Of a stretch of 39,386 bases of DNA, positions 1-36,447 are shown piece after piece (position 1 is the stretch's first letter; each line of letters starts with the position of its first letter). Both the position numbers and the translations under genes were made by a program. The notes below the pieces were generated by a model. That model made no database searches. It saw only the letters and a list, made by a program, of their open reading frames with translations, and was not told where the DNA came from. Where the stretch lies: the IMG/VR virus record IMGVR_UViG_642979322_000008; one strand, 5' to 3'. The DNA is from a virus (taxonomy: Duplodnaviria > Heunggongvirae > Uroviricota > Caudoviricetes).

Positions 1-531
1 CTAACCCGCTTTAGATTCTACCGGATTTGATTGCCTACTTGTCTCGGTTTTTTCCAAAATCTCTCTGACGCAATCGTCTGGCATATCTACAATCATCAAC
101 GCAGCCAGGCGCTTCCTGCCTTCTAGTTGTAATAAATCCTGGTTTTCTTTATCCAGCAGTGTCAGAACCGTCTCTACACCTTTGCGAGCAAGGAGATTGG
201 TTAACTGTTCTCGTTCGTCTTTCGTAAGGAATGAAAGCATCTGTGTAAGTTGATCTCCCTTATCACCAGAACAACCAAAATTACCACAAATACCAACATC
301 GTTTGGTGATTCACCCTTGCCCTCTTTAAGCCACTCAAGACTAACTCCTTCACTTTCAGAAATTCGTATAAGGATACTTTCTCTGGGGGCTGGTTGTGTT
401 TGTCCTCCCTTGAAATAGCTGTTTAATGTGTTGATATTGATTCCCCACGCTCTGGCAGCTGCACTTCTTGAAGGGTAGCGCTTTGTAAGCATTCCAATAC
501 GTTCAATAACAGGTTCTTTTCCCTGCGACAT
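1..531 (-). CDS. c: Mu-type repressor (c-like); C-terminus runs off the window start
   Basis: Leftward ORF divergent from ner, no stop within window; start chosen at ATG 531-529 preceded by GAGGTA (alternative in-frame ATG at 606); position and composition match Mu repressor layout. Confidence 0.65.
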   Translation of the reverse strand: MSQGKEPVIERIGMLTKRYPSRSAAARAWGININTLNSYFKGGQTQPAPRESILIRISESEGVSLEWLKEGKGESPNDVGICGNFGCSGDKGDQLTQMLSFLTKDEREQLTNLLARKGVETVLTLLDKENQDLLQLEGRKRLAALMIVDMPDDCVREILEKTETSRQSNPVESKAG

Positions 532-721
532 AAAGATACCTCTTGGTGCTTTTCTAAGGAAAGGTTTCTTTCTATTTATCCAATTGAAAAATAAGGATAA
601 AAGCAAAAATTAGCCAAAATACCAAAAATACCTTGATTTGGTATTTTTGGTGATGCATTATTTACCCGTGCAGATATCCGCACGAATATCCGCGCGGGTA
701 ACTTTTTAGAATAGAGGAAGT
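532..721. promoter_or_regulatory. Early operator/promoter region between repressor and ner
   Basis: Perfect 12-bp inverted repeat ACCAAAAATACC (621-632) / GGTATTTTTGGT (640-651); direct repeat ATATCCGC at 674-681 and 686-693 inside inverted flank TACCCG...CGGGTA (663-700). Confidence 0.6.
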
Positions 722-970
722 ATGAGTAGAAGAGAAGTTTCAGATCACGATTGGCCGCCTGAAATCATCAAGGCGCGCTTACACATGGCTGGCTTATCAC
801 TGCGCTCTTTATCTTTAAAGGCTGGTTACAGCAGGGATTCGCTGAAAAGCGTATTACGTACTCCTTGCCGACCGTATCAGCAAATAATTGCTGATGCTCT
901 TGGGGTATCGCCTGAAGAAATCTGGCCCAGTAGATACCAGGTTAAGAGCTATATGAGAAAGGCGTCATGA
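722..970 (+). CDS. ner: Ner-like DNA-binding protein (negative regulator of early transcription)
   Basis: 82-aa ORF with RBS GAGGAAG; motif ...LSLSALS-like and C-terminal IWPSRYQ typical of Mu Ner/Nlp family; sits immediately upstream of transposase. Confidence 0.85.
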   Translation: MSRREVSDHDWPPEIIKARLHMAGLSLRSLSLKAGYSRDSLKSVLRTPCRPYQQIIADALGVSPEEIWPSRYQVKSYMRKAS

Positions 971-971
971 T

Positions 972-3062
972 ATGTATGTCATTGCAAAAGAACTGATTGG
1001 CGCGCCCGGAATGCCTGCTACAACAAAAGGTATTCGCCAGGCATTACAACGTTACGTACAAGGGAAAAGCTGTTGTTCCCGTCGTCGCTCAGGCTCTAAA
1101 GCAACTGAATACAGCATCGACTGTTTACCTGAAGTGACGCAGCAGGCATTACGTGAACGTTATGCCCTGCAACTGATGACGCAAAAAGCCGATGAATCAC
1201 CGGCTCCGGTGGTGACAAAGGCCAGACGCTCATCTGACGTGGTTGATGCGGTGGAGGCATATCGCGGATCACCACAACTGATGGTCGAACGCCTCAATGC
1301 CCTGACTGAAAACCAGCGCCAGGTGGCTGATGCACGAATCGCGATCGTCAGCGAAGTGATGAAAGTCGCGCAACAACCCGGTTTCAGCTGCGCGAAGGCT
1401 ATCCGGTTTATCGTTGACAACCTGGCACGTTCACAGCTGGACGAGCGCATTGTGGCAATGGTTGAGACGGCGAACGCCAAAAAGGGAAACAGCCGTGCGT
1501 TGAGTGAAATCACGCTGAAGCGATGGATTGCGGCCTTTAACAAGGCACAGAACGCCGCTGAACGCCTGCTTTTACTGGCACCGGGTAAACGCCAGGAAAT
1601 AAAAGCCGAAGATATTAACTGGCTGCCCGAATTTCTGGCGCAGTATCGCCAGTCAAACGGCCGACCAATGACCGAGGCTTACGAGGATTTTGTCGCTGAA
1701 TGGCAGCACCGGCACGCTGATGAGCCTTATATGCTCGATATCATGCCGTCTTATGACACCATTCGCCGCGCAATGAAGAAACTGCCGGAAGTGGTGAAAC
1801 AAAAAGGCCGGGTGACCGGCAGTGAATACCGCCAGCTTGAGGGATTCACGCGCCGCGACTGGTCCAGAATGCCGGTGAATTATGTCTGGATTGGTGACGG
1901 TCACGGCATGAAGCTGAAATGCGCACACCCGGTTCACGGTCGGCCATTTGCACCGGAAGTGACCTTTGTTATCGACGGTGGCACGCGCTTTGTGGTGGGC
2001 TGGAGCCTTGACCTGGCTGAAAATGTTTTCGCCGTAGCCGGTGCCATACAGCACGGCATTCGCCATCACGGCAAACCGTTTCTGTATTACTCGGATAACG
2101 GCTCCGGGGAAACCGCCGACATCCTGGATAAGGAGGTTGTGGGGATACTGCCGCGACTGGGGATTAATCACCCGACCGGGATTGCCGGTAATCCGCAGGG
2201 ACGAGGCATTATCGAACGGCTTAACCGCACATTACCGATGCGCATAGCCCGTAAATACCGCACCTATTTCGGGAAAGGTGCAGATCGCGAGACGTTACGC
2301 AAAACCAACCGCGATTTACGCTCGGCATTTACTGCCCTGCAACAGGGCAAACGGCTGAACGCCCGGCAGCAGTCAGCGATGCGTGATTTACCGTCCTGGT
2401 CTGAACTGATTGATGCCATTCGTGATGGTGTTGAGTGGTACAACAACCGGCCGCACGATGAATTACCGGTGAAGCCGAACGGCAAGCATTACAGCCCGGC
2501 GGAGTTCAGAAAAAAACGCCTGGCGGAAGAGGACACGGAAATTGAATGGCTGTCCGATGTGGAATTGCGGGACATGTTCCGGCCGATGGTGGAACGCCCT
2601 GTAAGACGCTGTGAAATACGCTGGCTGAATAATATTTACTACGCGCCCGAGCTGCGTGATGAGCATGGCCGCAAGGTGCTTATCAGCTATGACATTCATG
2701 ATGCCGAACGAATTACCGTACGTCGCCTGGATGGCAGCGTGATTTGCGAGGCGGTATGGGACGGTAATAAACGCGAAGCCTTCCCGGTTAGCGCGGAATA
2801 CTACAAACAGCAGCAACGCCTTAAAGGCATGCGTAAACGCGCAGAGGAAAAAATCCGTGATGCCGAGGATGAGGTTGTCAACGTGCTGGAGCACAAGCCG
2901 CAGGAGCCCTGGCTGGAAAACATCTATCGCCCGGTAGGTAATACGGTGGCCGTTCAGCAACCTGCCATTGATGATGAGCCTGATGAAGAATACGAGCGCA
3001 ATTTCCAGCGGGGATTGCAGTTGCTCGAAGCGAAATTAAAAGAAAATGACCCGCTGGCCTGA
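972..3062 (+). CDS. A: Mu-type DDE transposase A
   Basis: 696-aa ORF immediately after ner; size and position match MuA (663 aa); family assignment by recalled similarity. Confidence 0.88.
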   Translation: MYVIAKELIGAPGMPATTKGIRQALQRYVQGKSCCSRRRSGSKATEYSIDCLPEVTQQALRERYALQLMTQKADESPAPVVTKARRSSDVVDAVEAYRGSPQLMVERLNALTENQRQVADARIAIVSEVMKVAQQPGFSCAKAIRFIVDNLARSQLDERIVAMVETANAKKGNSRALSEITLKRWIAAFNKAQNAAERLLLLAPGKRQEIKAEDINWLPEFLAQYRQSNGRPMTEAYEDFVAEWQHRHADEPYMLDIMPSYDTIRRAMKKLPEVVKQKGRVTGSEYRQLEGFTRRDWSRMPVNYVWIGDGHGMKLKCAHPVHGRPFAPEVTFVIDGGTRFVVGWSLDLAENVFAVAGAIQHGIRHHGKPFLYYSDNGSGETADILDKEVVGILPRLGINHPTGIAGNPQGRGIIERLNRTLPMRIARKYRTYFGKGADRETLRKTNRDLRSAFTALQQGKRLNARQQSAMRDLPSWSELIDAIRDGVEWYNNRPHDELPVKPNGKHYSPAEFRKKRLAEEDTEIEWLSDVELRDMFRPMVERPVRRCEIRWLNNIYYAPELRDEHGRKVLISYDIHDAERITVRRLDGSVICEAVWDGNKREAFPVSAEYYKQQQRLKGMRKRAEEKIRDAEDEVVNVLEHKPQEPWLENIYRPVGNTVAVQQPAIDDEPDEEYERNFQRGLQLLEAKLKENDPLA

Positions 3063-3132
3063 AATAAAAAATAACCCGAGCGGCGACTCAGGTTATTTGA
3101 TTAAACAAGGTATCAAATGAGAGGTTAATAAT

Positions 3133-4065
3133 ATGACTGATATTAACGATGTAATCAAGACCATTGATGAACTTATTGATGGCGGCGTACTGACGCAGTA
3201 TGCCATCGCCAGAGAGGCGGGAATTTCCGACGGCACATTATCGGCTTTCCGCAAGGGGAAATATAAAGGCGATAACGCCGCTGTGGCTGCTTCCCTGCGT
3301 TCCTGGTATGAGAACTGGAATAAACAAAGCGCACTGCCGGAACCGCCGCAGTTTGTGGAAACGCAGACAGTTCAGGAGCTGCGCGCACTGTTTCAGGCGG
3401 TTCGCCTGATGGGCTGTATTAACGTCATTGTGGGCGTGCCGGGGGTAGGTAAAACGGCCACCGCCCGTAATTACTGCCAGGAGCAACCAAACACCTGGAT
3501 GATCACCCTGTCACCCGCGCACTCCAGCGTCACGGAGTGTCTGCTGGAGCTGGCCGATGCGCTGGGGATTGATTACACCCGCGCGAACAAAGGGGCATTA
3601 TCCCGCGCCATCCGCCGTCGCCTGATGGGAACGCGTGGACTGGTGATTGTGGATGAGGCGGATCATCTTGGTATTGACGGTCTGGAGCAACTCCGGGCAA
3701 TTCAGGACGCCACGGGGATCGGGATGGTGCTTATTGGTAACCCGCGCGGATTGTTTAAAGGTGGACGCCGCGCCTTTGATGATTTATCGCGCCTGTTCAG
3801 CCGTCTTGCCCGTACAAAACAACTTCGCAAGGCCAAAAAGGCGGATGTGCTGGCCATTGCCAGGGCATGGGGTATCAGTGGTGAGGCCGAGCTGGCCGTC
3901 ATGCAGGCTATCGCTGAAAAGCCGGGAGCGTTACGCGTTCTGACACATACGCTTAACCAGGCGTGGCTCACCGCCAGCGGTGAAGGTGCGGCGCTGACAG
4001 AAAAACATATTAATGCGGCCTTTAAAGAGGTTTATACCAACCCTGAATTACTCTCACAGGTGTGA
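3133..4065 (+). CDS. B: Mu B-like AAA+ ATPase, transposition target-DNA activator
   Basis: 310-aa ORF after A; Walker A GVPGVGKT and Walker B VIVDEAD; N-terminal HTH-like region. Confidence 0.88.
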   Translation: MTDINDVIKTIDELIDGGVLTQYAIAREAGISDGTLSAFRKGKYKGDNAAVAASLRSWYENWNKQSALPEPPQFVETQTVQELRALFQAVRLMGCINVIVGVPGVGKTATARNYCQEQPNTWMITLSPAHSSVTECLLELADALGIDYTRANKGALSRAIRRRLMGTRGLVIVDEADHLGIDGLEQLRAIQDATGIGMVLIGNPRGLFKGGRRAFDDLSRLFSRLARTKQLRKAKKADVLAIARAWGISGEAELAVMQAIAEKPGALRVLTHTLNQAWLTASGEGAALTEKHINAAFKEVYTNPELLSQV

Positions 4066-4067
4066 TT

Positions 4068-4289
4068 ATGGCGGTATTTTATATTCCTGATATTTACGGA
4101 CGCTTTTACCTGGTTAATTTCGATAACGTGAAGGTGATTTCACTGGCCGAAAATAAAGAATGTGGCGATTTACTTTTTGAATTTAATGACCGCACACGAA
4201 TGGTGATATCTGCCGGACTTGATCGCGAAGGTGCGACAGACGTTTACAGCGGAATATGCCGTTCTGTTGGTGCGAAACAAGTCAGCTAA
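4068..4289 (+). CDS. hypothetical early protein
   Basis: ORF directly after B stop; ATG at 4068 chosen over GTG at 4062. Confidence 0.45.
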   Translation: MAVFYIPDIYGRFYLVNFDNVKVISLAENKECGDLLFEFNDRTRMVISAGLDREGATDVYSGICRSVGAKQVS

Positions 4290-4301
4290 ATGAGGTGTTA
4301 T

Positions 4302-4556
4302 ATGAATATGCAATCCTGCGGTAACAAAATGAATTTATTCGACTCCCTGAACAGCGCGCGCCGTCTGACCGAACTTGCCGGTGCGGTACTGGAACGCAGT
4401 AAGCGCTACCCACAACGTTTTGCACTGAAAACCACGCCGCCGGTAGGCAACGTGCAGGGAACCGGTGAAATTGAAATCACCATACAGACCAACGGCCTGC
4501 GCCGCCGTGTGAAGGCCACCCGCATCAGCGGCTGCACGGTTTACTGGGAGGTGTGA
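4302..4556 (+). CDS. hypothetical early protein
   Basis: ORF with GAGGTG before ATG at 4302 (track start 4290). Confidence 0.45.
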   Translation: MNMQSCGNKMNLFDSLNSARRLTELAGAVLERSKRYPQRFALKTTPPVGNVQGTGEIEITIQTNGLRRRVKATRISGCTVYWEV

Positions 4557-4557
4557 G

Positions 4558-4839
4558 GTGAAAAAAAATCTCATTGCATGGGCGTGGTCGAGTGGTCTTA
4601 TTGAGTTTGGTTACGTCCTGCCGGAAGGTGCATTGCCGATAGTTGCCGGAAAGCCTGCCACGGTACGGCATGTGATTGAGGTTATGGCGCGTCATGGACG
4701 TGATGAACAGGAGCAGTTACTGGTTCCGGGGATACCGGAAGCGGTGACGGAGGAAGAAGCCTTTAATGCCATGATTCGGTTCTGCCGTGAGGTCAGACGC
4801 CGGGTCAGTTATCCAAACAGAACGAGGACCAGAGGGTGA
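4558..4839 (+). CDS. hypothetical early protein
   Basis: GTG start preceded by GGAGG; tightly packed in early operon. Confidence 0.45.
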   Translation: MKKNLIAWAWSSGLIEFGYVLPEGALPIVAGKPATVRHVIEVMARHGRDEQEQLLVPGIPEAVTEEEAFNAMIRFCREVRRRVSYPNRTRTRG

Positions 4840-5108
4840 GTAAAGTCGTACGCATTATTTTCGAATACAAGGAGCACGTTATCCATAAAAACGCTGATGG
4901 AACAGTGCGCATGGGGGTAAGTCTGGACATACGTTCAACCGGGATAAAGCAGAAAGGTGATGGACCCGCCATGATTTTTGGGGTGGTTATGCTCGCGGAA
5001 AGCAGAGACTTTGCTGAACTTGTGGCAATGAAAGCCAGTGCGCTCATGAAAGATATGAGCATGCGTTCCGGGGTTATTAAAGGTAATGAATTTAATCAGC
5101 AGGGGTAA
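4836..5108 (+). CDS. hypothetical early protein, paralog 1 (MSKVVRIIFEYK...)
   Basis: Start overlaps upstream stop; N-terminus near-identical to the next gene. Confidence 0.5.
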   Translation: MSKVVRIIFEYKEHVIHKNADGTVRMGVSLDIRSTGIKQKGDGPAMIFGVVMLAESRDFAELVAMKASALMKDMSMRSGVIKGNEFNQQG

Positions 5109-5112
5109 TTCC

Positions 5113-5406
5113 ATGAGCAAAGTACGCGTTATTTTTGAATTTAAGCATGTTTCGCATGACGAAAAACCGGCAGGCAATGACTGTGTTGAAGTGCATGAAA
5201 AGATTGGTGTGGATGTAAAAACAGAACGTGATACGAATAACAGGCCGACGTCACTCTGTGACGTTTATGCAAGTATTCTCCAGTATCACAGCCCTGAAAT
5301 TATTCAGTTTCTCTCAGCGGAATTTCAGGCATCTGTACAGGCTTTTGGGGCGGATGCCATCATTAAACGCCACCGCGTGCATAAAGCATCAGGCACACTG
5401 CAATAA
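5113..5406 (+). CDS. hypothetical early protein, paralog 2 (MSKVRVIFEFK...)
   Basis: ATG at 5113 preceded by AGGGG; N-terminal similarity to 4836-5108. Confidence 0.5.
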   Translation: MSKVRVIFEFKHVSHDEKPAGNDCVEVHEKIGVDVKTERDTNNRPTSLCDVYASILQYHSPEIIQFLSAEFQASVQAFGADAIIKRHRVHKASGTLQ

Positions 5407-5417
5407 GGAAAAACAAA

Positions 5418-5948
5418 ATGGCAAAACGCGTTACAAAATTAAAGGCCGCAGCAGAGGCGGCACCGCAGACCCGTGAAGAGGTCAGCCGCGATATCCGCAC
5501 CCTGGGCGATATTCAGCGAGAGGCGCTGCGCCTGGAAACAGCGATGAATGATGAAGTGGCAGAAATCACCGCCCGTTATACGCCGCAGATTGAAAACCTT
5601 AAAAAAGAAATCAAAGTGCTTTTTAAGGGGATTCAGGACTGGTGCAAAACCAACCGTGATGAGCTGACGAACGGCGGCAAAACCAAAACTGCCAATCTGA
5701 CCACCGGAACGGTGTCATGGCGACTGGGGAATCCATCATGCAGCGTCAGTCGTGATGTGGAAGGTGTGATTGAAATGCTGCGCCGTATGGGCCTTGAGCG
5801 TTTTATCCGCACGAAAGAGGAAGTGAACAAGGAAGCGGTCCTGGCGGAGCCGGATGCGGTGAAAGGGATTGCCGGTATTAAGGTGAATAAAGGCGCTGAA
5901 AGTTTTTATGTCGAGCCTTTTGAACAGGACGCCGGACTGAATAAATAA
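5418..5948 (+). CDS. gam: Gam-like host-nuclease inhibitor (Ku-like DNA-end binding protein)
   Basis: 176-aa ORF; motifs RLETxMND, ANRDELTNGGKxKTANL, SWR, FIRTKxEINKEA and PFEQ match Mu Gam as recalled. Confidence 0.88.
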   Translation: MAKRVTKLKAAAEAAPQTREEVSRDIRTLGDIQREALRLETAMNDEVAEITARYTPQIENLKKEIKVLFKGIQDWCKTNRDELTNGGKTKTANLTTGTVSWRLGNPSCSVSRDVEGVIEMLRRMGLERFIRTKEEVNKEAVLAEPDAVKGIAGIKVNKGAESFYVEPFEQDAGLNK

Positions 5949-6045
5949 CACCGCATTAATCAATTAAATATCACTTCGTTTTAATTATGGCGCTCGCGTC
6001 AGGGGACTGCCTGCGCCTGTAAACTGAAAATAAGGAACAGGATAT

Positions 6046-6588
6046 ATGGCATATTTTTATTTCAAATTAGACCGTGTGCAGACAAATAAATATTTCACCA
6101 AATATCAACAGACTGTTTTACCGCTACGCAACAGTATTCTTCGGGCATTACTGAAAAATACAGGCGCTGCCGGATTGCGCTTAAAGCCGTTTGCCATGGA
6201 CGTAATCAGTGAGTTTTATTTTTCTGGTGCTCTGCCTGCGGGCTGGCGTAAGCGCGATGATGTGGCTTTTATCGGGGACGGACCGTGCTTTATTGCCAGA
6301 CCTGATGAGTCATGCCCTGAAGGTCCGGCGATTGCCGCAATGATTGAAACCGCTGAACGTGAGTTAAGAAAGCGTCCTGATTTCCTTGTCTGGCTCTGTG
6401 AAAAGCTGGGGGTAATGAGAATCCCCTCCATGTTTAACACGGACTCCTGGTGGACCCCGTCGCTCTCCCGTGATGCCCTGTGCGTGGTGTTTAAAGTAGG
6501 CGCTTATGGCAGGGAAATAAAAGGGTGTATTCCTGAAGAATGCCAGGAAATTAAACATTCTGAATATGTGGCGCTGACGGAGGAATAA
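6046..6588 (+). CDS. hypothetical early protein
   Basis: 180-aa ORF after a 97-bp AT-rich spacer; no recognised motif. Confidence 0.5.
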   Translation: MAYFYFKLDRVQTNKYFTKYQQTVLPLRNSILRALLKNTGAAGLRLKPFAMDVISEFYFSGALPAGWRKRDDVAFIGDGPCFIARPDESCPEGPAIAAMIETAERELRKRPDFLVWLCEKLGVMRIPSMFNTDSWWTPSLSRDALCVVFKVGAYGREIKGCIPEECQEIKHSEYVALTEE

Positions 6589-6591
6589 TTC

Positions 6592-7125
6592 ATGATTGAT
6601 GCAAAAGTGCTTGAAGGGGTTAAAAACTGGCTGAGTATTTACGGGCGTCTGACCTGCGGCATTCTGGCTGAAAAAATGAATATGCCGCCATCCTCGATGG
6701 TTTATTTTTTGCGTGATGCGGTCGATGCCGGGGTGCTGACGGAATGTAACGGTTTTTATGATATTCCGCGTCCCCGCCCGGTGCAGCCGGTTCGTCGCAA
6801 ATGCAGCCAGGAAGGTGCGGCTGATGATGTTCAGTGGTGCAGCTTCAGAAAATCCCTGCCGTGGATTGAGGGGCATGATATTCCGTCGATGGCGTGGGAA
6901 TTTGCTCAGGGCGTACTGACCTGCGAAACCGTTTATGTGGTGGTTGAAGTTGATGAGCAGGCCATGAAAGAAGGCGTGCCCCAGTTTGTGATGGCGTATA
7001 TCGACATTCGCCTGGGTGTCATTATCTGCGGTTTAAGCGGCTGGAATATCACCGAACATGTTCTGCGTTACCTGATTGTTGACCGGACGGCTGCACCTGC
7101 CGGGATATCTGCGGAGGTGGCGTAA
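6592..7125 (+). CDS. hypothetical protein with N-terminal winged-helix-like segment
   Basis: 177-aa ORF; LTCGILAEKMNMPPSSMVYFLRDAVDAGVL resembles an HTH. Confidence 0.5.
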   Translation: MIDAKVLEGVKNWLSIYGRLTCGILAEKMNMPPSSMVYFLRDAVDAGVLTECNGFYDIPRPRPVQPVRRKCSQEGAADDVQWCSFRKSLPWIEGHDIPSMAWEFAQGVLTCETVYVVVEVDEQAMKEGVPQFVMAYIDIRLGVIICGLSGWNITEHVLRYLIVDRTAAPAGISAEVA

Positions 7126-7640
7126 TGTTCTTTAAAACATCAAACCCTTCCGCGCTGGCCGCGTGGCAAAAATATCAGCAGGACTGCCAGAAAGTTAAGG
7201 ATGAGGCAAAACGCCTTGAGGCCGTGCTGAATGTTGCGTGCCGGTCGGTATTTGTATCCGGTATCAGTGGCTTTTGTTTTAAAGGGCTGCGCTTTATGGA
7301 TGACAAATATCCTTTTCATCGCGACTTATGGCGAAAACCGACTGCGTCGAATGGCTGGAGCTGCACACCGCGCACATCACGTATTCCCAAAGCCCTGCGC
7401 GTTGCCTCTGACGAACTTAACAGTCTGTGGCGTGAATATTCGCCCGTCACGTATGCCAGAACCGATGCACTGTTGTTCTGGCTGGGTATTGACTTCTCAG
7501 CAATATTGCATGGTCCCGTGAAGTGGTTCTGCGTTGACGATGTTATTTACCTTCAGTGCGAAGATGATTCCGCAAAACGGAAAATGACCGAAATTCTGTC
7601 TGATGAGTTTTATGCTGCCGAAAAGCGAGTCGGGGGGTGA
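7125..7640 (+). CDS. hypothetical early protein
   Basis: 171-aa ORF, start overlaps upstream stop. Confidence 0.45.
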   Translation: MFFKTSNPSALAAWQKYQQDCQKVKDEAKRLEAVLNVACRSVFVSGISGFCFKGLRFMDDKYPFHRDLWRKPTASNGWSCTPRTSRIPKALRVASDELNSLWREYSPVTYARTDALLFWLGIDFSAILHGPVKWFCVDDVIYLQCEDDSAKRKMTEILSDEFYAAEKRVGG

Positions 7641-7643
7641 TGC

Positions 7644-8195
7644 ATGATGAAATTACAACCCATGGGGAGAAAAGGCCGTGCACCCGCTCATGTTCGCGCA
7701 TGGACACCTGAAGAAGATGCGCTGCTGATTGCGCTTTATCCATCCACCCCGGTTAAGGATATTGCTGTCAGGATAAAAAGAAGTTTCTGGGGTGTACATA
7801 ACCGGATTGTTTTATTACGCGGTACTTACCCGGAGTTGCTCAAATGCAAACGCCTCAGATTTAAACCTGATGAAGATAAATTTATCCGAAAAAATGCCAG
7901 GACGATGACCGGTAAGCAAATAGGAGAATATCTGGGGCGAGACCGGGATTCTGTCCACAATCGGGCGCGATATATTGGCGTAAGCATGAAAAAATACGGA
8001 GAATTACTGCCTTTTACCCGCATACCTGACGATGATGTTCATCTTATTCGTGAATTACGGGATGCTGAATCACCACGGCGTCTTACCTTTAGGGAAATCG
8101 GCGAGAAATTTGAATTATCCGAGGGCACGGTGAGTTTTATTTATCACCGTCGTCGGACTGCCGAAGATGTTGTATTACGGGAGTTAACGACATGA
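7644..8195 (+). CDS. hypothetical protein with three tandem Myb/SANT-like HTH repeats
   Basis: Three internal repeats: WTPEEDALLIALY...VHNRI, FKPDEDKFIRKNA...VHNRARYIG, IPDDDVHLIRELR...TVSFIYHRRR. Confidence 0.55.
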   Translation: MMKLQPMGRKGRAPAHVRAWTPEEDALLIALYPSTPVKDIAVRIKRSFWGVHNRIVLLRGTYPELLKCKRLRFKPDEDKFIRKNARTMTGKQIGEYLGRDRDSVHNRARYIGVSMKKYGELLPFTRIPDDDVHLIRELRDAESPRRLTFREIGEKFELSEGTVSFIYHRRRTAEDVVLRELTT

Positions 8196-8377
8196 TAAGG
8201 AGACTTGTTTTTTTCGCAATTATCGTTCCTGTGTGGGGGGTTGGTTTTATATTTGCGGTTACAGGAAATCTGTCCATGATGCCGGATATATGGTTCTTTA
8301 TCAGGATGTCGCTCTTCCTGTTTATTATGAATCTTCTTATCGACATATATATCCGTATTACTGGAAAACATAAATGA
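8192..8377 (+). CDS. small hydrophobic membrane protein (two predicted TM helices)
   Basis: 61-aa ORF, highly hydrophobic; first gene of an AT-rich block. Confidence 0.45.
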   Translation: MIRRLVFFAIIVPVWGVGFIFAVTGNLSMMPDIWFFIRMSLFLFIMNLLIDIYIRITGKHK

Positions 8378-8415
8378 GAAAAATCACGACCTTGTCAGAG
8401 TTACAGGAGATGAAT

Positions 8416-8748
8416 ATGAGTATTGAATTAAGATCGTCTTATGAATATCGTAAAATTCTCATCGCCGGAGGCATGAAACCGGAAGATGCAGAAAAAATCG
8501 TTTCTTTTATGGATAAAGAATGTGACAAACGGGATATGCCAGAAATTATTATGGATGACATGATTCTGGATTCAGCCGTGGCGTTAAGTCCGTTATGGAT
8601 TGTGCATTCTCTTGCTGAAATTGCCAAAGGCACCGATAAACAGGCAGCTGTTGCTGCCCTTCAGACGCTTAATGAAATGCGTATATCTCCACGCCCGACA
8701 TTAATACATATGATTCTGTCCAGCATGGAGGATAAAGCAAATGAATAG
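8416..8748 (+). CDS. hypothetical protein (AT-rich island)
   Basis: ATG at 8416 preceded by AGGAG (track start 8374); acidic 110-aa product. Confidence 0.45.
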   Translation: MSIELRSSYEYRKILIAGGMKPEDAEKIVSFMDKECDKRDMPEIIMDDMILDSAVALSPLWIVHSLAEIAKGTDKQAAVAALQTLNEMRISPRPTLIHMILSSMEDKANE

Positions 8749-8938
8749 TCTACCCGCTGGATGGGCGCGGCCACTAATGGCCAGGAAGCATCATTTTTTT
8801 AAAACAGGCGAAAATATCAGTATATGTGGACGGTGGTTATATCTGGCTCATAATCGCGAGCCGGATACATTTGAAAGCCCTGATGACTGTGCCGAATGCC
8901 GCAGAAGAGTGAATAAGGAGAAAGATAATGGACAATAG
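8741..8938 (+). CDS. hypothetical small protein with possible Cys zinc-ribbon (C..C / CAEC)
   Basis: 65-aa ORF, overlapping starts/stops with neighbours. Confidence 0.4.
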   Translation: MNSLPAGWARPLMARKHHFFKTGENISICGRWLYLAHNREPDTFESPDDCAECRRRVNKEKDNGQ

Positions 8939-9224
8939 TTCTCTGTTGTTCTGGTGCTTATATATCACATCCTTTTTCGGCGCATTTGTTATTACCCGGT
9001 GGTTATGTCGAAAAATCATCTGCTTTTTTGATAAAAGACATCCGGTTGAACGGGCGGCTGATGCGCTCATTCAGCAGGCCATTGTGTTATATAGCGGTGA
9101 GTTTTTCTGCCGGATAACAACCAGAGATGGCTGGCACATAATGATTATTCCACCAACACACCATGCCCGGTGGGATGAGGCAGAAAAGGCTTTCCATGTC
9201 CGTAAAAAGGTAAATACGGTATGA
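8928..9224 (+). CDS. hypothetical protein with N-terminal TM helix
   Basis: 98-aa ORF, hydrophobic N-terminus LLFWCLYITSFFGAFVI. Confidence 0.4.
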   Translation: MDNSSLLFWCLYITSFFGAFVITRWLCRKIICFFDKRHPVERAADALIQQAIVLYSGEFFCRITTRDGWHIMIIPPTHHARWDEAEKAFHVRKKVNTV

Positions 9225-9730
9225 GAGGAAAACTGATATCCGCCATTCATGTGGCAAAGCGCGAGCTTGCCCTGGATGATGAGACTTATACATCCGCGCT
9301 GCTGGCAGCCACCGGCAAAACCAGCTGCCGGGATATGTCACCGGATGAGTTATCCCGCGTGCTGGATGTTTTCAAAAAACGCGGTTTTAAAGTGCGTCAG
9401 AACCCGGTTAACCGGGCCTTAAAACCGGGTACGGTGACCGCCAAAATTCGCGCCATCTGGAAGGTGATGCACCGGCAGGGCTTTATCACCGATGGTGCGG
9501 AAACCGCCCTTAACCGCTGGGTGAAATCGCAGACGGCCGCGCAGAACGGCGGCGAAGGTGTGGCAAACTGGCAGTGGCTGGAGCAACACCCCGCCCTGGC
9601 CTCAGATGTGCTGGAGCGTCTCAAGCGATGGCACCGCCGCAAAATGCTGGCCGCGATGGGAATGCCCGAACGCACGCTGATGGGGTATGACGCCGTTTGC
9701 AGGCAGTATGAAAAATCACTTCCCCGTTAA
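9221..9730 (+). CDS. gemA: GemA-like protein (Mu gp16 family)
   Basis: 169-aa ORF; N-terminal LISAIHVAKRELALDDETY...TGKTS matches recalled Mu GemA; position before Mor/C gene. Confidence 0.75.
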   Translation: MRGKLISAIHVAKRELALDDETYTSALLAATGKTSCRDMSPDELSRVLDVFKKRGFKVRQNPVNRALKPGTVTAKIRAIWKVMHRQGFITDGAETALNRWVKSQTAAQNGGEGVANWQWLEQHPALASDVLERLKRWHRRKMLAAMGMPERTLMGYDAVCRQYEKSLPR

Positions 9731-9734
9731 CCCC

Positions 9735-9765
9735 AAATCCCGCCACAACGCGGGATTTTTATTTT
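9735..9765 (+). terminator. rho-independent terminator after gemA
   Basis: Stem AAATCCCGC / GCGGGATTT with 6-nt loop followed by TTATTTT. Confidence 0.65.
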
Positions 9766-9799
9766 AAACTTACCGGGAACGCGAGAACCGGAGGCTGAT

Positions 9800-10225
9800 A
9801 TGGCAGAAACTCAGATGAGCATGTTTGGTGGTGACAGTGAGCAACTGCACGCCCTTATCGACCGCCTTGATGACATCCCTGATGATGTTCTCAAAAAGAA
9901 CTGGCCGCGGACCCTGTCAGAACTGGTTGAAGTCACCGGCGCAGAACTTCAGCGTCAGGGGATTGAGCCGGTACTGGCCGGTAAACTGGCACGCAAGGTG
10001 GCTGCGGCTCAGGCAGCCTATATGGGCGGACGGGGTTATTACCTGCCGGTCGGGGAATCTCTCTTTGCCGAGCTGCGAAACAATGAGATATTTTCGCGCT
10101 GGGACCGGGGCGAGAAAATTGAATCCCTTCGCCGCCATTACCGGATGTCAGAAACCCAGATTTATACCGTCATACGCGAACAGCGCCGTCTGCATCTGGC
10201 AAGAACGCAACCGCCACTTTTCTGA
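9800..10225 (+). CDS. Mor/C-family transcription activator (middle/late gene activator)
   Basis: 141-aa ORF with C-terminal HTH (ETQIYTVIREQRRL); architecture like Mu Mor and C; only one such gene found. Confidence 0.75.
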   Translation: MAETQMSMFGGDSEQLHALIDRLDDIPDDVLKKNWPRTLSELVEVTGAELQRQGIEPVLAGKLARKVAAAQAAYMGGRGYYLPVGESLFAELRNNEIFSRWDRGEKIESLRRHYRMSETQIYTVIREQRRLHLARTQPPLF

Positions 10226-10296
10226 TATTCCGCAAAGCCTGCCGCCTCTCCTTCACCGTTACGCTGACTCAGAGAACATCATGAGACAGCGTAACA

Positions 10297-10797
10297 ATGC
10301 CAAAACTCCCCGCACCACTGCGTAAAAAGCTGATTGCCCTTGTTCTGGCCGGTGCCGGGACGTTCACGATTGCCACGCATTACACCGGTTACTGGGAAGG
10401 GAAAGAAAACTCCACGTATATCGATCCCACCGGTACACCCACCATCTGTTACGGCCATACCGGCCCGGATGTGAAACCGGGTATGACCCTGACAGATGAA
10501 GAATGCCTGGAACTACTGGAAAAGGACATGAAATGGGCCTTTGCGGCCATTGATCGGCGTGTTCAGGTGCCGCTTACCCGTGGTCAGACGGTGGCGCTGG
10601 CTTCGTGGATCTTCTGGGCCGGTGAAACGAACTTTCGCAACTCCACGCTTCTGCGCCTGATCAATGCCGGGCAGATGCCCGCGTCCTGTAAGCAGTATAT
10701 CCGCTGGATTTATTCAAAGGGGGTGAAACTCCCCGGCCTTGAGGCCCGCCGTTCGGCGGATGAATGGTTATGTCGCTACGACTTGCCGAAAGTCTGA
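10297..10797 (+). CDS. lys: SAR endolysin (lysozyme, T4-like glycoside hydrolase fold)
   Basis: N-terminal signal-anchor LIALVLAGAGTFTIATHY followed by E...D...T catalytic spacing (YWEGKENSTYIDPTGTPT). Confidence 0.8.
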   Translation: MPKLPAPLRKKLIALVLAGAGTFTIATHYTGYWEGKENSTYIDPTGTPTICYGHTGPDVKPGMTLTDEECLELLEKDMKWAFAAIDRRVQVPLTRGQTVALASWIFWAGETNFRNSTLLRLINAGQMPASCKQYIRWIYSKGVKLPGLEARRSADEWLCRYDLPKV

Positions 10798-10870
10798 ACC
10801 GCTTCTGGCGACCGCTCATGATAGCGCTGCTGTGTGCGGTACTGCTGTTACGGGGTGTCCTGTGGCTGCG

Positions 10871-11260
10871 GTGAATAATGCCTTACCGGCCCTGATTGCC
10901 GGGGCGTGCATGGCGGCGCTGGGGATTATCGCTGTACTGGTTGCCGCTATATGGGGAATGCACCAGAAGACGCAGCGCCTTGAAGACAATAATCAGGTGC
11001 TTGTGCGTGAGCGGGATGAGGCGCGTCAGGTGCTGGCAAATCAGCAGCACACCCTGCAACTCATTTCACAAATCAGTGAGGCGGCCACGAATGAAAAACA
11101 ACAGAACATTCAGCACAGCGAGGGGCAGCAGAGCGTTGTCCGCCGGTCGCTGGCAGCAGTGCCTGCGGCCTCTGCCCCTGTTCCTGATGATGTGGCTGAT
11201 CGGGTGCGCCGGGCCGTCTGTGAAATACGTGCCTGTGAAGCCGGTGCCGATCCCCGCTGA
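10871..11260 (+). CDS. i-spanin (Rz-like); start uncertain
   Basis: N-terminal TM segment ALIAGACMAALGIIAVLVAAIWG then charged/coiled region; GTG 10871 chosen, other in-frame starts possible. Confidence 0.45.
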   Translation: MNNALPALIAGACMAALGIIAVLVAAIWGMHQKTQRLEDNNQVLVRERDEARQVLANQQHTLQLISQISEAATNEKQQNIQHSEGQQSVVRRSLAAVPAASAPVPDDVADRVRRAVCEIRACEAGADPR

Positions 11261-11462
11261 ATGGCTGGCTGACTGCCTGGTCCCTCCTGCGCCGGAGCCG
11301 TTCACGTTTGGGGCATCGGTCACTTACAACCTGCAACTGCTGGCGGTGATCAAGAACTGCAACGTGGACAAGGCCAGTATTCGTCGTCTGGAGACGCGGC
11401 GACAACATGAATTTACTGATATGGCCGGAACGCCTGCTGTTCCGGCAGGAAAAACGAAGTAA
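11091..11462 (+). CDS. o-spanin (Rz1-like lipoprotein), overlapping i-spanin in another frame
   Basis: Lipobox-like LIGC followed by Pro-rich sequence; start uncertain. Confidence 0.45.
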   Translation: MKNNRTFSTARGSRALSAGRWQQCLRPLPLFLMMWLIGCAGPSVKYVPVKPVPIPAEWLADCLVPPAPEPFTFGASVTYNLQLLAVIKNCNVDKASIRRLETRRQHEFTDMAGTPAVPAGKTK

Positions 11463-11471
11463 GGAAAAGGT

Positions 11472-11699
11472 ATGGATGATTCAGATCGTGCTCAGGCTGT
11501 GATGGAGCGGGGATCAGAACGCGCCCTTTGTAACCGGCTGACACGTAAGCGCCAGGCAGTGGATACGCCGGGCAGACGTGTCTGCGCGGACTGTGGCGGA
11601 GAGATCCCCGCCGCACGTCTTGTTGCTGTGCCGGATGCCATCCGTTGTGTGAACTGCCAGAACATCATGGAGGCCCGTCATGTGGGTCAGCATCGTTAA
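11472..11699 (+). CDS. TraR/DksA-family C4 zinc-finger protein
   Basis: CxxC...CxxC (CADCGG...CVNCQ) in a 75-aa ORF. Confidence 0.6.
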   Translation: MDDSDRAQAVMERGSERALCNRLTRKRQAVDTPGRRVCADCGGEIPAARLVAVPDAIRCVNCQNIMEARHVGQHR

Positions 11700-11988
11700 A
11701 GATTATGTTGTGCCGATCCTTTCGGCGACGGCAACCGCTGGCGGGATATTCATGGCGCTGATGCGCAAAACGTTTGTCCCCCGCGAGGCCTTTGAAAAAC
11801 TCTCCGACCGCGTTGAGAAGGTGGAAACCCGCCTGTCGTCACTGCCGACAGAAGCCGAGGTCAACCGTCTGAATGTGGAAATCGTGACCCTGCGGGGTGA
11901 ACTGAAAACCACGAACGCCACGCTCCGCTCTGTCTCCTATCAGAACGAACTGCTGCTGGAGCAGGCTGTAAGGAAAAAAACGCAATGA
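11680..11988 (+). CDS. hypothetical membrane-anchored protein (Mu gp25-like position)
   Basis: N-terminal hydrophobic segment then coiled-coil-like region. Confidence 0.5.
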   Translation: MWVSIVKDYVVPILSATATAGGIFMALMRKTFVPREAFEKLSDRVEKVETRLSSLPTEAEVNRLNVEIVTLRGELKTTNATLRSVSYQNELLLEQAVRKKTQ

Positions 11989-12275
11989 GTGATTTCATTA
12001 CTGAAGATCAGCGTCTGGTCATTCTGCGGTCGCTGGCAGATTACAACGGTGAACTGGGTGAATCCGTGCTCCAGGACTGTCTGGATGATTACGGCCACCG
12101 CGTGTCCCGCGACACCGTTCACACCCACATTGCCTGGCTTGCCGAGCAGGGACTGGTGCGCAAACGCGTTCTGATTAACGGTTATTTCATCGCGGAACTG
12201 ACCGGTCGTGGGCAGGATGTGGCGGAAGGCCGGGTCTGCGTTCCGGGTGTGAAGAAACCACGCGCAAGGGGGTAA
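11985..12275 (+). CDS. hypothetical protein (Mu gp26-like position)
   Basis: 96-aa ORF overlapping neighbours by 4 nt. Confidence 0.5.
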   Translation: MSDFITEDQRLVILRSLADYNGELGESVLQDCLDDYGHRVSRDTVHTHIAWLAEQGLVRKRVLINGYFIAELTGRGQDVAEGRVCVPGVKKPRARG

Positions 12276-20304: not shown

Positions 20305-20733
20305 ATGAATGAACATCACACTGTGGCAGCAACAGATGATTCAGGTCTTCAGGTCAGTGGTGACAATTCTGTCACGGTGCTGGCAGAAGTGCGTTGCAGT
20401 CGTTCGGCGTTTCGTCGTGCGGGGTTCCTGTTCACGCGTGGACGTCAGCAGGTTGAGGTCACCCCGGAGCAGCTTGCCCGACTGGAGGAGGAGCCATGCC
20501 TCACTGTGCGAATACTACAGACGTCTGCTGATGATGCGGGGAGCGTGGCGGGTGTGGTTCATGCAGTGGCCGGTACAGATTTAGCCGAAGCCGAAGCCGA
20601 AGCCGAAGCCGAAGCCGAAGCCGAAGCCGAAGCCGAAGCCGAAGCCGAAGCCGAAGCCGAAGCCGAAGCCGAAGCCGGACAGGATGCTCCCCGGAAAAAG
20701 ACCGGTAACAAAGCGGAACAGGCCCGTGCATGA
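20305..20733 (+). CDS. small head-region protein with (Ala-Glu)15 tract
   Basis: 142-aa ORF with GGAGG RBS; contains in-frame (GCCGAA)15. Confidence 0.55.
   Translation: MNEHHTVAATDDSGLQVSGDNSVTVLAEVRCSRSAFRRAGFLFTRGRQQVEVTPEQLARLEEEPCLTVRILQTSADDAGSVAGVVHAVAGTDLAEAEAEAEAEAEAEAEAEAEAEAEAEAEAEAGQDAPRKKTGNKAEQARA
20584..20673 (+). repeat. perfect hexanucleotide tandem repeat (GCCGAA)x15
   Basis: Seen directly: 15 uninterrupted GCCGAA units followed by GCCGGA. Confidence 0.95.
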
Positions 20734-31629: not shown

Positions 31630-32540
31630 TGTTCCATGTTGATAATAATTCCGGCGTGGCGAATATGCCTGCGCTGGCACCGGCGCAGAGTAATACCACC
31701 ACCTGGTTTACCGAAGGTGACGGACAAAAAGGTATCAGCTGGATTGGTCAGGACTGGCTGAATATTCTCCAGGCCGAACTGCTGAATATTCTGGCTGAAG
31801 CCAGTATTCAGCCGGATAAGGCGCAGTTAAACCAGCTTACGCTGTCCATTAAAGCCATTATCGCTGCGAATGCCTTTTCCCGGAAAAACAACCTGAAAGA
31901 AATTGCTGATGCCGGTGCGGAAGCCCAGCGTCTTGCCCGTGGTTATCTTGGTCTTGGGGCGCTTGCCACAAAAAACAGTCTTGGTCCCGGTGACGTTAAT
32001 GCTCTGGCGAAGGATCAGAACCTTGCCGACCTGGAGAATGCGGGAACCGCCCGTAATAATCTGGATGTTTACAGCAAAAGCGAAGGTGATAACCGTTACC
32101 TGCGCAGGGAGCAGAACGGCGCAGACATTCCGGATAAAGGCGCTTTTATCGATAACGTTGGTTTACGGGAAACGGTAAATAAGGCTGCTGATGCCCTGCC
32201 ATCGGGTGGAACCGCCGTGGCAGCAAACAGACTCGCCACCCCAAGAAATATTAATGGTGTTCCTTTTGACGGAACGCTGGATATCAACATCACGTCAGGA
32301 ATGACGCAGTCAACCGCAGATGGCCGGTATGTACAGAATGTTCAGCTTGGAGCACAGAGCTATCATTCACCCGGAGGCAATGAAATGTCATGGAATTACA
32401 GCGCACCTTCCGGTTGTATGCTTTCCGGAATTAACGTGCAGGAAACCGGCTCCCGGTCTGCGGACAATATCGGTGGGGTCTATTATCGCCCGGTTCAGAT
32501 TTATATTAATAATGCCTGGAGAACGGTAAGTTCAGTGTAA
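31629..32540 (+). CDS. tail fibre protein; constant N-terminal part plus variable C-terminal part inside the invertible segment
   Basis: ATG 31629 (MFHVDNNSG...); the C-terminal ~125 aa lie downstream of the left crossover site and have a diverged inverted copy on the minus strand. Confidence 0.8.
   Translation: MFHVDNNSGVANMPALAPAQSNTTTWFTEGDGQKGISWIGQDWLNILQAELLNILAEASIQPDKAQLNQLTLSIKAIIAANAFSRKNNLKEIADAGAEAQRLARGYLGLGALATKNSLGPGDVNALAKDQNLADLENAGTARNNLDVYSKSEGDNRYLRREQNGADIPDKGAFIDNVGLRETVNKAADALPSGGTAVAANRLATPRNINGVPFDGTLDINITSGMTQSTADGRYVQNVQLGAQSYHSPGGNEMSWNYSAPSGCMLSGINVQETGSRSADNIGGVYYRPVQIYINNAWRTVSSV
32146..32171. repeat. left invertase crossover site (gix-like)
   Basis: TTATCGATAACGTTGGTTTACGGGAA; inverted partner at 33521-33546; shares GGTTTAC(A/G)GGAA core with Mu gix as recalled. 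Confidence 0.55.
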
Positions 32541-32574
32541 ACCACAGAAAAGGGTGCTGAATGCACCCTCTGAA

Positions 32575-33096
32575 TTATTCCGGTTTTTCCGGCCAGGGAA
32601 TCGCCTGGTAATGCCCCTCACTGGCAATATCATTAAAGTGCATTTCTTTAAGCTGTCGGATATACGCCATCCAGCGCGTCAGCTGTAATTTATTTTCATC
32701 GCTAATCATGTCCAGTTTTAATTCCGTTTTCCAGTCATCCACAGTTTCGTTGGCTTCCTGGAGCAGCGATGAGCGGCGCTTTTCAGCAACCGTCTTCCAG
32801 TTTACCGGCACCTTTGATATCAGGCCATCAGAAAACTGCCAGTTACCGTCAATATTCACACCTTCCGGCAGTTCGTCCACTTCAACAACAGTAAAACCTG
32901 CCGGATATAAAGCAGAGACATCTTCAGCAACAGAGCAGATAATACCCGTTACAGGCGAAATACAGAGTTTGTATTTCTTTGTGAAAAGCGGGATAGATTC
33001 ATAAAAATCCCTTCCGTCCTCACTCTGGAAATACTGAACATCCTCACCATAGGGTTTGTGTTCCGGGTAATATCGTTTTACGTTAATAAGCTCCAT
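32575..33096 (-). CDS. tail fibre assembly protein (Mu U/U'-like)
   Basis: ATG at 33096 preceded by AAGGTGA; 173 aa; inside the invertible segment. Confidence 0.7.
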   Translation of the reverse strand: MELINVKRYYPEHKPYGEDVQYFQSEDGRDFYESIPLFTKKYKLCISPVTGIICSVAEDVSALYPAGFTVVEVDELPEGVNIDGNWQFSDGLISKVPVNWKTVAEKRRSSLLQEANETVDDWKTELKLDMISDENKLQLTRWMAYIRQLKEMHFNDIASEGHYQAIPWPEKPE

Positions 33097-33175
33097 TATT
33101 TCACCTTGTTTTTGTTGAAAAGACAAAATCATCATATATTTATTCAGATAATCTGTTTTTTGAACTACTGCACTT

Positions 33176-33520
33176 TTATGCGCTGGAAGCTGTTTTCCAC
33201 GAACCATCTATCAGAAACTGAACAGGTCGATAATATGCGGTTACCGTTGCATTACCATCACCAGCGACATCAAGCCCTGTAAGTACGCATCCGTCAGGAA
33301 CCTCAAAAATATTATATTGCATTCCAATCGTTGACCTTGAACCTCTTCGAATGCTTTGAACATAACGTGAGTCAGCCACAGACTGCGTCATCCCCGATGT
33401 AATATTTATATCCTGCGTTCCGTCAAATGGGACACCATTAATATTTCTTGGAGTGGCGAGTTTATTCGCTGCAACAGCCGCTCCGTTCGATGGCAGGGCA
33501 TTCGCGGCCCTGTTTACAGT
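33176..33520 (-). CDS. alternative tail-fibre C-terminal cassette (Sv'-like), start-less
   Basis: Minus-strand frame reads GLRDTVNRAANALPSNGAAVAANKLATPRNINGVPFDGTQDINITSGMTQSVADSRYVQ..., a diverged copy of the forward tail-fibre C-terminal region; open up to the right crossover site. Confidence 0.6.
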   Translation of the reverse strand, partial: TVNRAANALPSNGAAVAANKLATPRNINGVPFDGTQDINITSGMTQSVADSRYVQSIRRGSRSTIGMQYNIFEVPDGCVLTGLDVAGDGNATVTAYYRPVQFLIDGSWKTASSA

Positions 33521-33546
33521 ATCCCGTAAACCGAAGGTTTCAGGGA
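33521..33546. repeat. right invertase crossover site (gix-like), inverted relative to 32146-32171
   Basis: ATCCCGTAAACCGAAGGTTTCAGGGA; reverse complement carries CGGTTTACGGGA as at the left site. Confidence 0.55.
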
Positions 33547-33601
33547 TGCCGTATATCTGCTTTAAAAGGCCTTTCCACCTCTTTTTAAGGAAGGTAAATA
33601 C

Positions 33602-36301: not shown

Positions 36302-36307
36302 AAAAAT

Positions 36308-36334
36308 CCCGCCGGTCATGATATGGCTGGCGGG
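36308..36334 (-). terminator. GC-rich hairpin after the esterase gene with U-tract on the minus-strand side
   Basis: Stem CCCGCCGG / CTGGCGGG; A7 precedes it on the plus strand, which gives T7 after it on the minus strand. Confidence 0.35.
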
Positions 36335-36447
36335 AGCTACCTAACCCATAAAGGAAAATAAAAATACTCCCGAAGGAGTGGTTATCAGTCGCTTCGATGT
36401 TTTTACCCGATAACGAATTATGTAGTCAATATCAAAGGTAAGGTTAT

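Follow-up and report, generated by a model that had tools for sequence, protein, structure and literature searches.

A variable accessory-gene slot upstream of gemA in an Sp18-like, Mu-type prophage of Escherichia coli

The stretch of DNA considered here, 39,386 nucleotides (nt) of one strand of a virus of the class Caudoviricetes (IMG/VR record IMGVR_UViG_642979322_000008; hereafter, the window), is a Mu-like prophage in which four small genes, designated T, B, C, and D, fill positions 8192 to 9224, immediately ahead of gemA. We posit that this region makes up the variable part of an accessory-gene slot that closes the early (Pe) operon at its 3′ end and that its products are independently acting early lytic factors, a reading to which we assign a probability of roughly 0.7. 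Support for the slot structure is good; what we infer is the functional class of the genes. T, B, C, and D are coding genes under purifying selection, with ratios of nonsynonymous to synonymous substitution (dN/dS) of 0.09 to 0.25; they assort independently, and the breakpoints between them coincide precisely with gene boundaries. A first-pass annotation of the same DNA had called the region an AT-rich, separately acquired accessory island inside the Mu-type semi-essential early region. Its four open reading frames (ORFs), encoding a 61-amino-acid (aa) protein with two transmembrane (TM) segments, an acidic protein of ~110 aa, a 65-aa Cys-containing protein, and a 98-aa TM-anchored protein, are as described, and the location also stands, between the gp11/gp12 homologs plus a helix-turn-helix (HTH) gene on one side and gemA on the other. 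So does the accessory character of the block, since in close relatives, whose flanks are 90 to 99% identical, the four genes are partly or wholly missing or others take their place. Acquisition as a single unit does not.

The slot and its content among relatives

Positions 1 to 38548 of the window are 99.99% identical to Sp18, a Mu-like prophage of E. coli O157:H7 Sakai, and the region 7600 to 9800 is 100% identical to Sp18 and to many other O157, O26, O103, and O145 genomes. In Sakai, the block corresponds to four annotated hypothetical genes (locus tags in Table 1), and a literature search on their locus tags and protein accessions found no paper. The backbone 6592 to 10225 is present in 233 of 5,426 complete E. 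coli genomes (~4%), many of them Shiga-toxin-producing strains. From these 233 genomes we fetched representative slot variants and clustered the slot proteins, using the labels X, Y, Z, E, and F for the alternative genes in relatives.

E. coli prophages with 90 to 99% identical flanks show at least six architectures: T-B-C-D, as in the window; T-X-Y-Z-B-C-D; Y-Z-B-C-D; Y-Z-B-C-D with a 50%-identical D; Y-D; and Y-E-F, in which E is a homolog of Mu gp14 and F lies on the reverse strand. Among the prophage sequences, two loci (L007 and L010) lack all four genes and have a Mu gp14-like gene and a reverse-strand gene instead, and two others (L009 and L012) keep D alone; gene order is otherwise intact in all four. 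T is found in 109 of the 233 backbone-carrying genomes and an intact B-C-D run in 157, with ~55 further genomes having the 3′ part of D replaced. DNA homology to relatives stops or restarts at 8201, 8384/8403, 8925, and 9245, never more than a few codons from a start codon. The block thus consists of at least three independently assorting pieces (T, B plus C, and D), with even the 3′ part of D swapped separately, and these junctions point to a slot into which single-gene cassettes are recombined, the exchanges falling exactly at gene boundaries, rather than to one acquired island. A repeat search at the block turned up neither direct nor inverted repeats at its flanks of the kind expected for a mobile element, and an Rfam scan of 7500 to 10300 found no RNA family. 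Given the independent pieces, the gene-boundary breakpoints, and the absence of mobile-element marks, separate acquisition of the block as one unit is not borne out.

The spacer between T and B, where homology to related prophages is interrupted from 8384 to 8403, offers a glimpse of this exchange. At the place where a relative carries X-Y-Z, it still has the initial 11 nt of gene X, and the ATG at 8374 reproduces the start, ATGAGAAAAAT, of the 75-aa gene that a relative has at the same position. The retained start of X suggests that the spacer is the scar of a past deletion.

The slot itself holds a fixed position. Around the block lie homologs of Mu Gam (57% identity), gp11 (67%), gp12 (53%), GemA (Table 1), and Mor, and the block closes the Mu-type semi-essential early region, at the position where Mu carries gp13, gp14, and the reverse-strand gp15. 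Whether in Sp18-like prophages, Mu, or SfMu, the slot is bordered on one side by a gp9-like HTH gene (or gp12) and on the other by gemA, which is its conserved anchor; in SfMu, the genes at this position are gp13, gp14, gp15, and gp16. Homology to Mu core early genes, which the first-pass annotation had named as grounds for abandoning its view, did not emerge: T, B, C, and D have no BLASTP match to Mu gp13, gp14, or gp15 at E ≤ 1.

A wider survey covered 79 species-representative GemA loci from diverse Proteobacteria, located by a GemA-alignment search and annotated with rough ORF calls. The 1.5 kb upstream of gemA in these loci held 270 ORFs that grouped into 126 families, 92 with a single member, and the gemA-adjacent ORF belonged to 46 different families; T, B, C, and D were found in none of the 79. 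Judged by these ORF families, the pre-gemA position is hypervariable across Mu-like phages. A second variable position lies between gemA and mor, where L009 (3477 to 3818) and L012 (2970 to 3627) have extra AT-rich genes, namely a reverse-strand ORF of 113 or 140 aa and another ORF of 78 aa, with guanine-plus-cytosine (GC) contents of 0.35 to 0.42; in the window this position is empty.

The HTH gene on the left flank was kept in every Sp18-like prophage examined and is 72 to 99% identical in seven related loci. Its product is 32% identical to Mu gp9 and belongs to PHROG 323 (“transcriptional regulator, D5-like”; 1e-58), with Pfam HTH and Sigma70_r4 matches below threshold. Although low in GC (0.458), this gene lies outside the variable content. 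With a GC content at third codon positions (GC3) of 0.40, it is AT-rich like the variable genes yet conserved. Unlike the duplicated HTH gene beside the block, the Mu homolog (gp9) has a single repeat and sits upstream of gam.

Base composition and the host prophage

The drop in GC content across 8192 to 9224 that the first-pass annotation had pointed out is confirmed by computation: 0.419 in the block, as against 0.535 in the window, 0.492 in the left flank (5418 to 8191), and 0.568 in the right flank (9225 to 12000). Only 0.53% of all 1,033-bp segments are as low in GC, every one of them overlapping the block, and the minimum (0.413) is reached by the segment starting at 8002. GC3 is 0.408 for the four concatenated coding sequences, compared with 0.561 for all other coding sequences and 0.529 for the others in the early operon; because synonymous sites are also low, the shift is not merely one of amino acid composition. 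Each of T, B, C, and D is among the 10 lowest-GC genes of 56, and in codon usage, which the first-pass annotation had proposed as a check, the block differs from other genes, ranking as the second most deviant of 54 one-kilobase gene blocks. The block is not, however, the sole low-GC stretch. At a threshold of 0.45, the low-GC stretch runs from ~7382 to 9424 and takes in the upstream HTH gene, and three further patches occur at 1 to 1300 (repressor/ner), 32144 to 34011 (invertible tail fiber), and 36315 to 38339 (gin-mom cargo).

Most of the alternative slot cassettes in E. coli are AT-rich as well (0.40 to 0.43), the exception being Y (0.50), and the slot of Mu itself is somewhat GC-poor (0.465, compared with 0.53 to 0.55). 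A GC dip as a general property of the pre-gemA slot in Mu-like prophages was nevertheless rejected by a survey of 78 Mu-like loci, in which the mean difference from gemA was +0.004 and only 5% of the loci dipped by more than 0.05; the dip in Sp18 is 0.14.

Between the gin invertase and com/mom, at 34262 to 37414, is a second low-GC cargo block. Its genes specify a NanS-p-like protein of 679 aa that combines SASA sialate O-acetylesterase and DUF6645 domains, proteins of the DUF1378 and DUF826 families that are typical of lambdoid Stx phages, and a reverse-strand orphan of 154 aa with a GC content of 0.40; these proteins have no PADLOC match.

The right flank of the window (38549 to 39386) is fbpC, encoding the ATPase of a ferric ABC transporter, which is truncated by the insertion near 38548; in Sakai, the corresponding gene is sorM. 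This junction matches strains M1300706002 and 6535 (100%), indicating an O157:H7 strain other than Sakai. The different insertion site of the same transposable phage is consistent with active Mu-type transposition; Sp18 has been reported to be apparently intact, not inducible by mitomycin, and, like Mu, not circularized (PMC2669165). Within the homolog of ECs_4975, a head-region gene, a perfect hexanucleotide array, (AGCCGA) × 15.8, lies at 20583 to 20677; it is 42 bp (seven units, in frame) longer than in Sakai Sp18 and is thus a variable-number repeat.

The four genes and their families

Table 1. Genes of the slot, its borders, and associated features (locus tags are those of the Sakai homologs)
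Feature	Position	Strand	Description
Left-flank HTH gene	7644..8195	+	183-aa basic protein, isoelectric point (pI) 10.1; duplicated gp9/D5-like HTH; ECs_4956 homolog
Gene T	8192..8377	+	61 aa; pI 10.9; two-TM hairpin; ECs_5772 homolog
T-B spacer	8378..8415	+	38 nt; junction where relatives carry two or three extra genes (75, 103, 116/130 aa)
Gene B	8416..8748	+	110 aa; pI 4.9; net charge ~−6; ECs_4957 homolog
Gene C	8741..8938	+	65 aa; 3 Cys; ECs_4958 homolog
Gene D	8928..9224	+	98 aa; N-terminal TM anchor, ~residues 4 to 24; ECs_4959 homolog
gemA (gp16 family), right flank	9221..9730	+	Pfam GemA, 3e-30; 44% identity to Mu GemA; GC 0.575
Terminator-like hairpin	9735..9758	+	9 pairs; T-run; five bases after the gemA stop

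T and D encode the two membrane proteins. Hydropathy analysis places hydrophobic segments at residues 1 to 28 and 32 to 58 of T, and the basic residues at both ends predict, by the positive-inside rule, an N-in/C-in topology; D, which is preceded by a ribosome-binding site, has a single N-terminal hydrophobic segment followed by a basic stretch, from which the remaining ~70 residues are probably cytoplasmic. T has only a weak match to PHROG 19804. A tblastn search of 50,697 phage records finds each of the two in one Mu-like insert only, and both are orphans of Sp18-like prophages. The dN/dS ratio is 0.13 for T, measured against an 84%-identical allele, and 0.18 for D. Homologs of D form 7 clusters among 5.8 billion proteins (identities of 99, 56, 51, and 48%). 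Their N terminus is conserved (14 invariant columns within residues 2 to 24, plus K36), and the C-terminal part is ~35% identical. Compared with one relative, nucleotide identity falls from ~100% to 45 to 48% across 9003 to 9242, with 97 to 100% identity on both sides, and synonymous sites in the diverged segment are saturated. Because these saturated sites lie amid near-identical DNA, the 3′ allele of D is an old one that was brought in by recombination, not made by recent point mutation. T4 Imm and HK97 gp15 are known exclusion proteins at the inner membrane, and both T and D are small inner-membrane proteins, as superinfection-exclusion proteins of the T4 Imm, HK97 gp15, and P22 SieA type are, by hydropathy prediction; neither matches known exclusion proteins in Pfam, annotated PHROGs, or PADLOC, and D has no PDB sequence match.

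For B, the start at 8416 is favored by an AGGAG ribosome-binding site and by the N termini of its homologs; the in-frame ATG at 8374, which overlaps the stop of T, would extend the protein to 124 aa. B falls into PHROG 1988, a family of unknown function, and its dN/dS ratio is 0.09. The family is small, with 10 clusters at E ≤ 1e-3 among 1.84 billion representatives, and includes SfMu gp14 (YP_009152200; 34% identity), a gene absent from Mu itself, along with proteins of Yersinia Mu-like phages and of two metagenomic or draft prophages. SfMu gp14 and the proteins of Yersinia vB_YpM_3/5/6/23 are true homologs, 34 to 36% identical over 82 to 85% of the length and encoded in the same slot; they share with B the motifs LIAGG and LSPxWI...IAxGxDKQAAVAAL and are likewise uncharacterized. 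SfMu differs in that its B homolog lies between gp13 and the Mu gp14 homolog, without T, C, or D. All four readable contexts of B (Sp18, SfMu, and loci L099 and L100) are the pre-gemA slot of a Mu-like phage, and in L099 the protein is fused to a 140-aa N-terminal extension. B thus belongs to a rare family that has to date been seen only ahead of gemA in Mu-like phages. Its N-terminal motif, YRKxLIxxGxxPxDxxxI, also occurs as three tandem copies in P0043, an unrelated 211-aa protein with a signal-peptide-like N terminus, which suggests a small, reusable helical hairpin module. Structural modeling makes B a putative all-helical cytoplasmic protein. A Foldseek search of the model against PDB and BFVD found no match below E = 0.4. 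Two candidate identities were rejected: a diverged paralog of the Mu gp14 family, for which hhalign gave a probability of 0.2%, and a DNA-mimic antirestriction protein of the Ocr/ArdA type, B being only mildly acidic (19 D+E compared with 13 K+R).

C belongs to PHROG 2358, another family of unknown function, and has a dN/dS ratio of 0.25; frameshifted copies occur in some genomes (P0028 to P0030). In the alignment, residues H18, C29, C50, and C53 are conserved without exception from E. coli to Pbunavirus, a pattern from which the protein would form a zinc-ribbon-like HCCC metal site. A Pfam scan of 17 family members individually gave no match, and a suspected likeness to DUF3039 was dropped for want of one. 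By tblastn, C homologs occur in 197 phage records, 167 of them from Pseudomonas and the others from Klebsiella, Pantoea, Escherichia, and Shigella. The homolog in Pbunavirus 14-1 is ORF85, in an early small-gene cluster; Pbunaviruses are strictly virulent. Elsewhere, homologs lie immediately ahead of GemA in a Mu-like prophage of Salmonella, in a Citrobacter element with Cro/Q and HicAB genes, in a Buttiauxella contig, and in a Klebsiella phage, adjoining DNA methyltransferases. As these contexts show, the C family is scattered through early small-gene clusters of unrelated phages.

Expression, role, and competing explanations

Each of the four genes has its own ribosome-binding site. All lie on the same strand as the early operon and overlap at their junctions by 4 to 11 nt, except for the T-B spacer; the start of T overlaps the stop of the HTH gene, and that of gemA overlaps the stop of D, each as ATGA. 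A terminator scan found no + strand terminator inside 8192 to 9224; the strongest + strand terminator-like site in positions 1 to 11000 is the hairpin behind gemA, which likely marks the end of the early transcript. A consensus scan of the same 11,000 positions gave six + strand promoter-like sites, compared with 4.8 ± 2.2 in shuffles, all of them weak (9/12 matches). The common strand, the overlaps, the absence of an internal terminator, and promoter-like sites that are not in excess together argue for cotranscription with the early operon. We posit that T, B, C, and D are cotranscribed with ner-A-B-kil-gam...gemA from Pe on a transcript that would end at the hairpin and that they are translated from their own ribosome-binding sites, coupled through the overlaps. 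The proteins would appear in the first minutes of infection or induction, beside host-modifying functions of the Kil, Gam, and GemA type, and would be silent in the repressed lysogen. T and D would act at the inner membrane and B and C in the cytoplasm. Because the genes assort independently, each protein probably acts alone on a host, defense, or competitor target, and the set may amount to dispensable host-takeover, counterdefense, or exclusion factors that tune fitness on particular hosts.

Anti-CRISPR and other anti-defense genes were first found in such accessory slots of temperate phages. The region has the fixed position, variable content, and odd composition of a region of genomic plasticity (RGP), and its natural variants suggest that it is dispensable. 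In Mu-like phages of Pseudomonas aeruginosa, the low-GC RGP G carries anti-CRISPR genes (Cazares et al. 2014, PMC4378225). The RGPs of these phages resemble the Sp18 slot in that they consist of short (34- to 100-codon), tightly packed, phage-specific ORFs placed at fixed positions between conserved core genes, vary in content between close relatives, coincide with GC valleys, and have no recombinase target or repeats at their borders (PMC4378225). They differ in that RGP G belongs to the late head region, whereas the Sp18 slot is the last of the early operon, before gemA, in E. coli Myoviridae-type relatives of Mu, and in that no block gene is homologous to a known anti-CRISPR or anti-defense protein (PDB search for B, C, and D; Foldseek for B). 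The nin region and moron genes of lambdoid phages (Juhala et al. 2000, cited in PMC4378225) are likewise clusters of small, dispensable mosaic genes with gene-boundary junctions and atypical composition. Classical morons differ in having their own promoter and terminator and in being expressed by the prophage; no such signals stand out in the block, and the consensus scan did not find the promoter and terminator of a strict moron.

Several observations favor an early lytic role: the presence of the C family in Pbunavirus, the swapped soluble part of D, and the anti-CRISPR genes in low-GC plasticity regions of Pseudomonas Mu-like phages. As to the nature of that role, anti-defense or host takeover is plausible. 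Small size, variability, and low GC, traits of anti-defense genes in variable, compositionally odd loci, are all found here, and early expression would follow from the operon context. D, membrane-tethered and with a soluble domain that exists in anciently diverged, swapped alleles, has the pattern expected of an arms-race partner. Tentatively, and with a good deal less assurance than we attach to the slot and its early lytic character, at least one of the four proteins may be a new counterdefense or host-takeover effector (B, C, and D being the candidates), or T and D may be early lytic exclusion factors.

Other results weigh against the early, independently acting role. Four of the six + strand promoter-like sites lie inside the block (8428, 8522, 8827, and 9114), as would be expected for AT-rich DNA, and expression from them in the lysogen is possible. 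B and C occur together in all four E. coli architectures that have either, and a functional B-C pair within the E. coli lineage is conceivable; elsewhere, the two occur apart (B without C in SfMu, C without B in Salmonella). The homology searches also assign no function: none of the four proteins has a Pfam or NCBIfam match, the PHROG families returned are of unknown function only, PADLOC-DB v2 has no match to any of the four genes at E ≤ 1, and PDB sequence searches with B, C, and D gave none below E = 0.8. AlphaFold2 modeled B as six helices with low confidence (12-sequence alignment, pLDDT 67), and its model of D (7-sequence alignment, pLDDT 51) was unusable for a fold search.

An unlikely alternative is that T and/or D, possibly with B or C, are lysogen-protective cargo expressed from their own prophage promoters and acting in superinfection exclusion, abortive infection, or a toxin-antitoxin-like manner, as the first-pass annotation had proposed for the small membrane proteins. 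T and D are indeed predicted inner-membrane proteins, like T4 Imm and HK97 gp15, weak sigma-70-like sites do cluster in the block, and the deep allelic replacement of the soluble part of D is what an arms race would produce. However, those sites all match at 9/12, with no excess over shuffles; the block showed neither a terminator nor any other mark of a self-contained transcription unit; its genes overlap those next to them in a repressed early operon; and the C family is common in early small-gene clusters of a strictly virulent genus. No match to defense or toxin-antitoxin families was found in PADLOC, Pfam, or NCBIfam, so that a correspondence with known defense systems did not materialize. 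Independent assortment also leaves no obligate toxin-antidote pair: T is seen both alongside B and apart from it; D with neither B nor C; C without B in Salmonella, Klebsiella, and Pbunavirus; and B without C in SfMu. The toxin-antitoxin suggestion is thus disfavored, there being neither obligate gene pairing nor a known toxin-antitoxin domain, and lysogen protection, though conceivable, is disfavored by the operon context. Taken together, the evidence argues against toxin-antitoxin modules or lysogen-protective cargo.

It is improbable that the four genes are diverged core functions, that is, lineage-specific analogs of gp13 to gp15 that serve a conserved early task of the Mu type, for example modulation of transposition, replication, or GemA action, and owe their AT-richness to fast evolution. 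Mu gp13 (E14), gp14 (E15), and gp15 occupy the same syntenic slot, are similar in size (60 to 100 aa), and have a GC content below that of their flanks; the B family is found just upstream of gemA in every readable context; and Mu gp13 and Sp18 C are both Cys-containing proteins of ~60 aa. The Mu proteins nonetheless share no sequence or profile similarity with the Sp18 set (BLASTP E > 1) and have no long hydrophobic stretch by eye, whereas the Sp18 set has two membrane proteins; gp15 is encoded on the reverse strand, whereas the Sp18 genes are all forward. SfMu has B and a gp14 homolog side by side, so the two are not alternatives. Moreover, L007 and L010 lack all four genes and L009 and L012 retain just one, none of the four is present in the other GemA loci surveyed, and the rarity of a GC dip >0.05 among Mu-like loci shows that the composition is not slot-wide. 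That the block is decaying or nonfunctional filler, chance ORFs in AT-rich DNA or remnants, is highly improbable: T and D lack homologs outside the Sp18-like prophage lineage, some C copies are frameshifted, and the structure models are of low confidence, but all four genes have ribosome-binding sites and are tightly coupled, their dN/dS ratios indicate purifying selection, B, C, and D are retained in most backbone-carrying genomes (157/233), and the B and C families are conserved across genera with invariant residues.

The Sp18 prophage was already known, and its slot is a phage feature of an ordinary kind, a region of genomic plasticity in an already described prophage. What is refined here is its annotation, with the “island” recast as a cassette slot instead of a single acquired element, and the plausible roles of its genes narrowed to early lytic functions. 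The slot offers four uncharacterized small early proteins, about ten when its relatives are included, and prophages that naturally have or lack the genes could act as controls.

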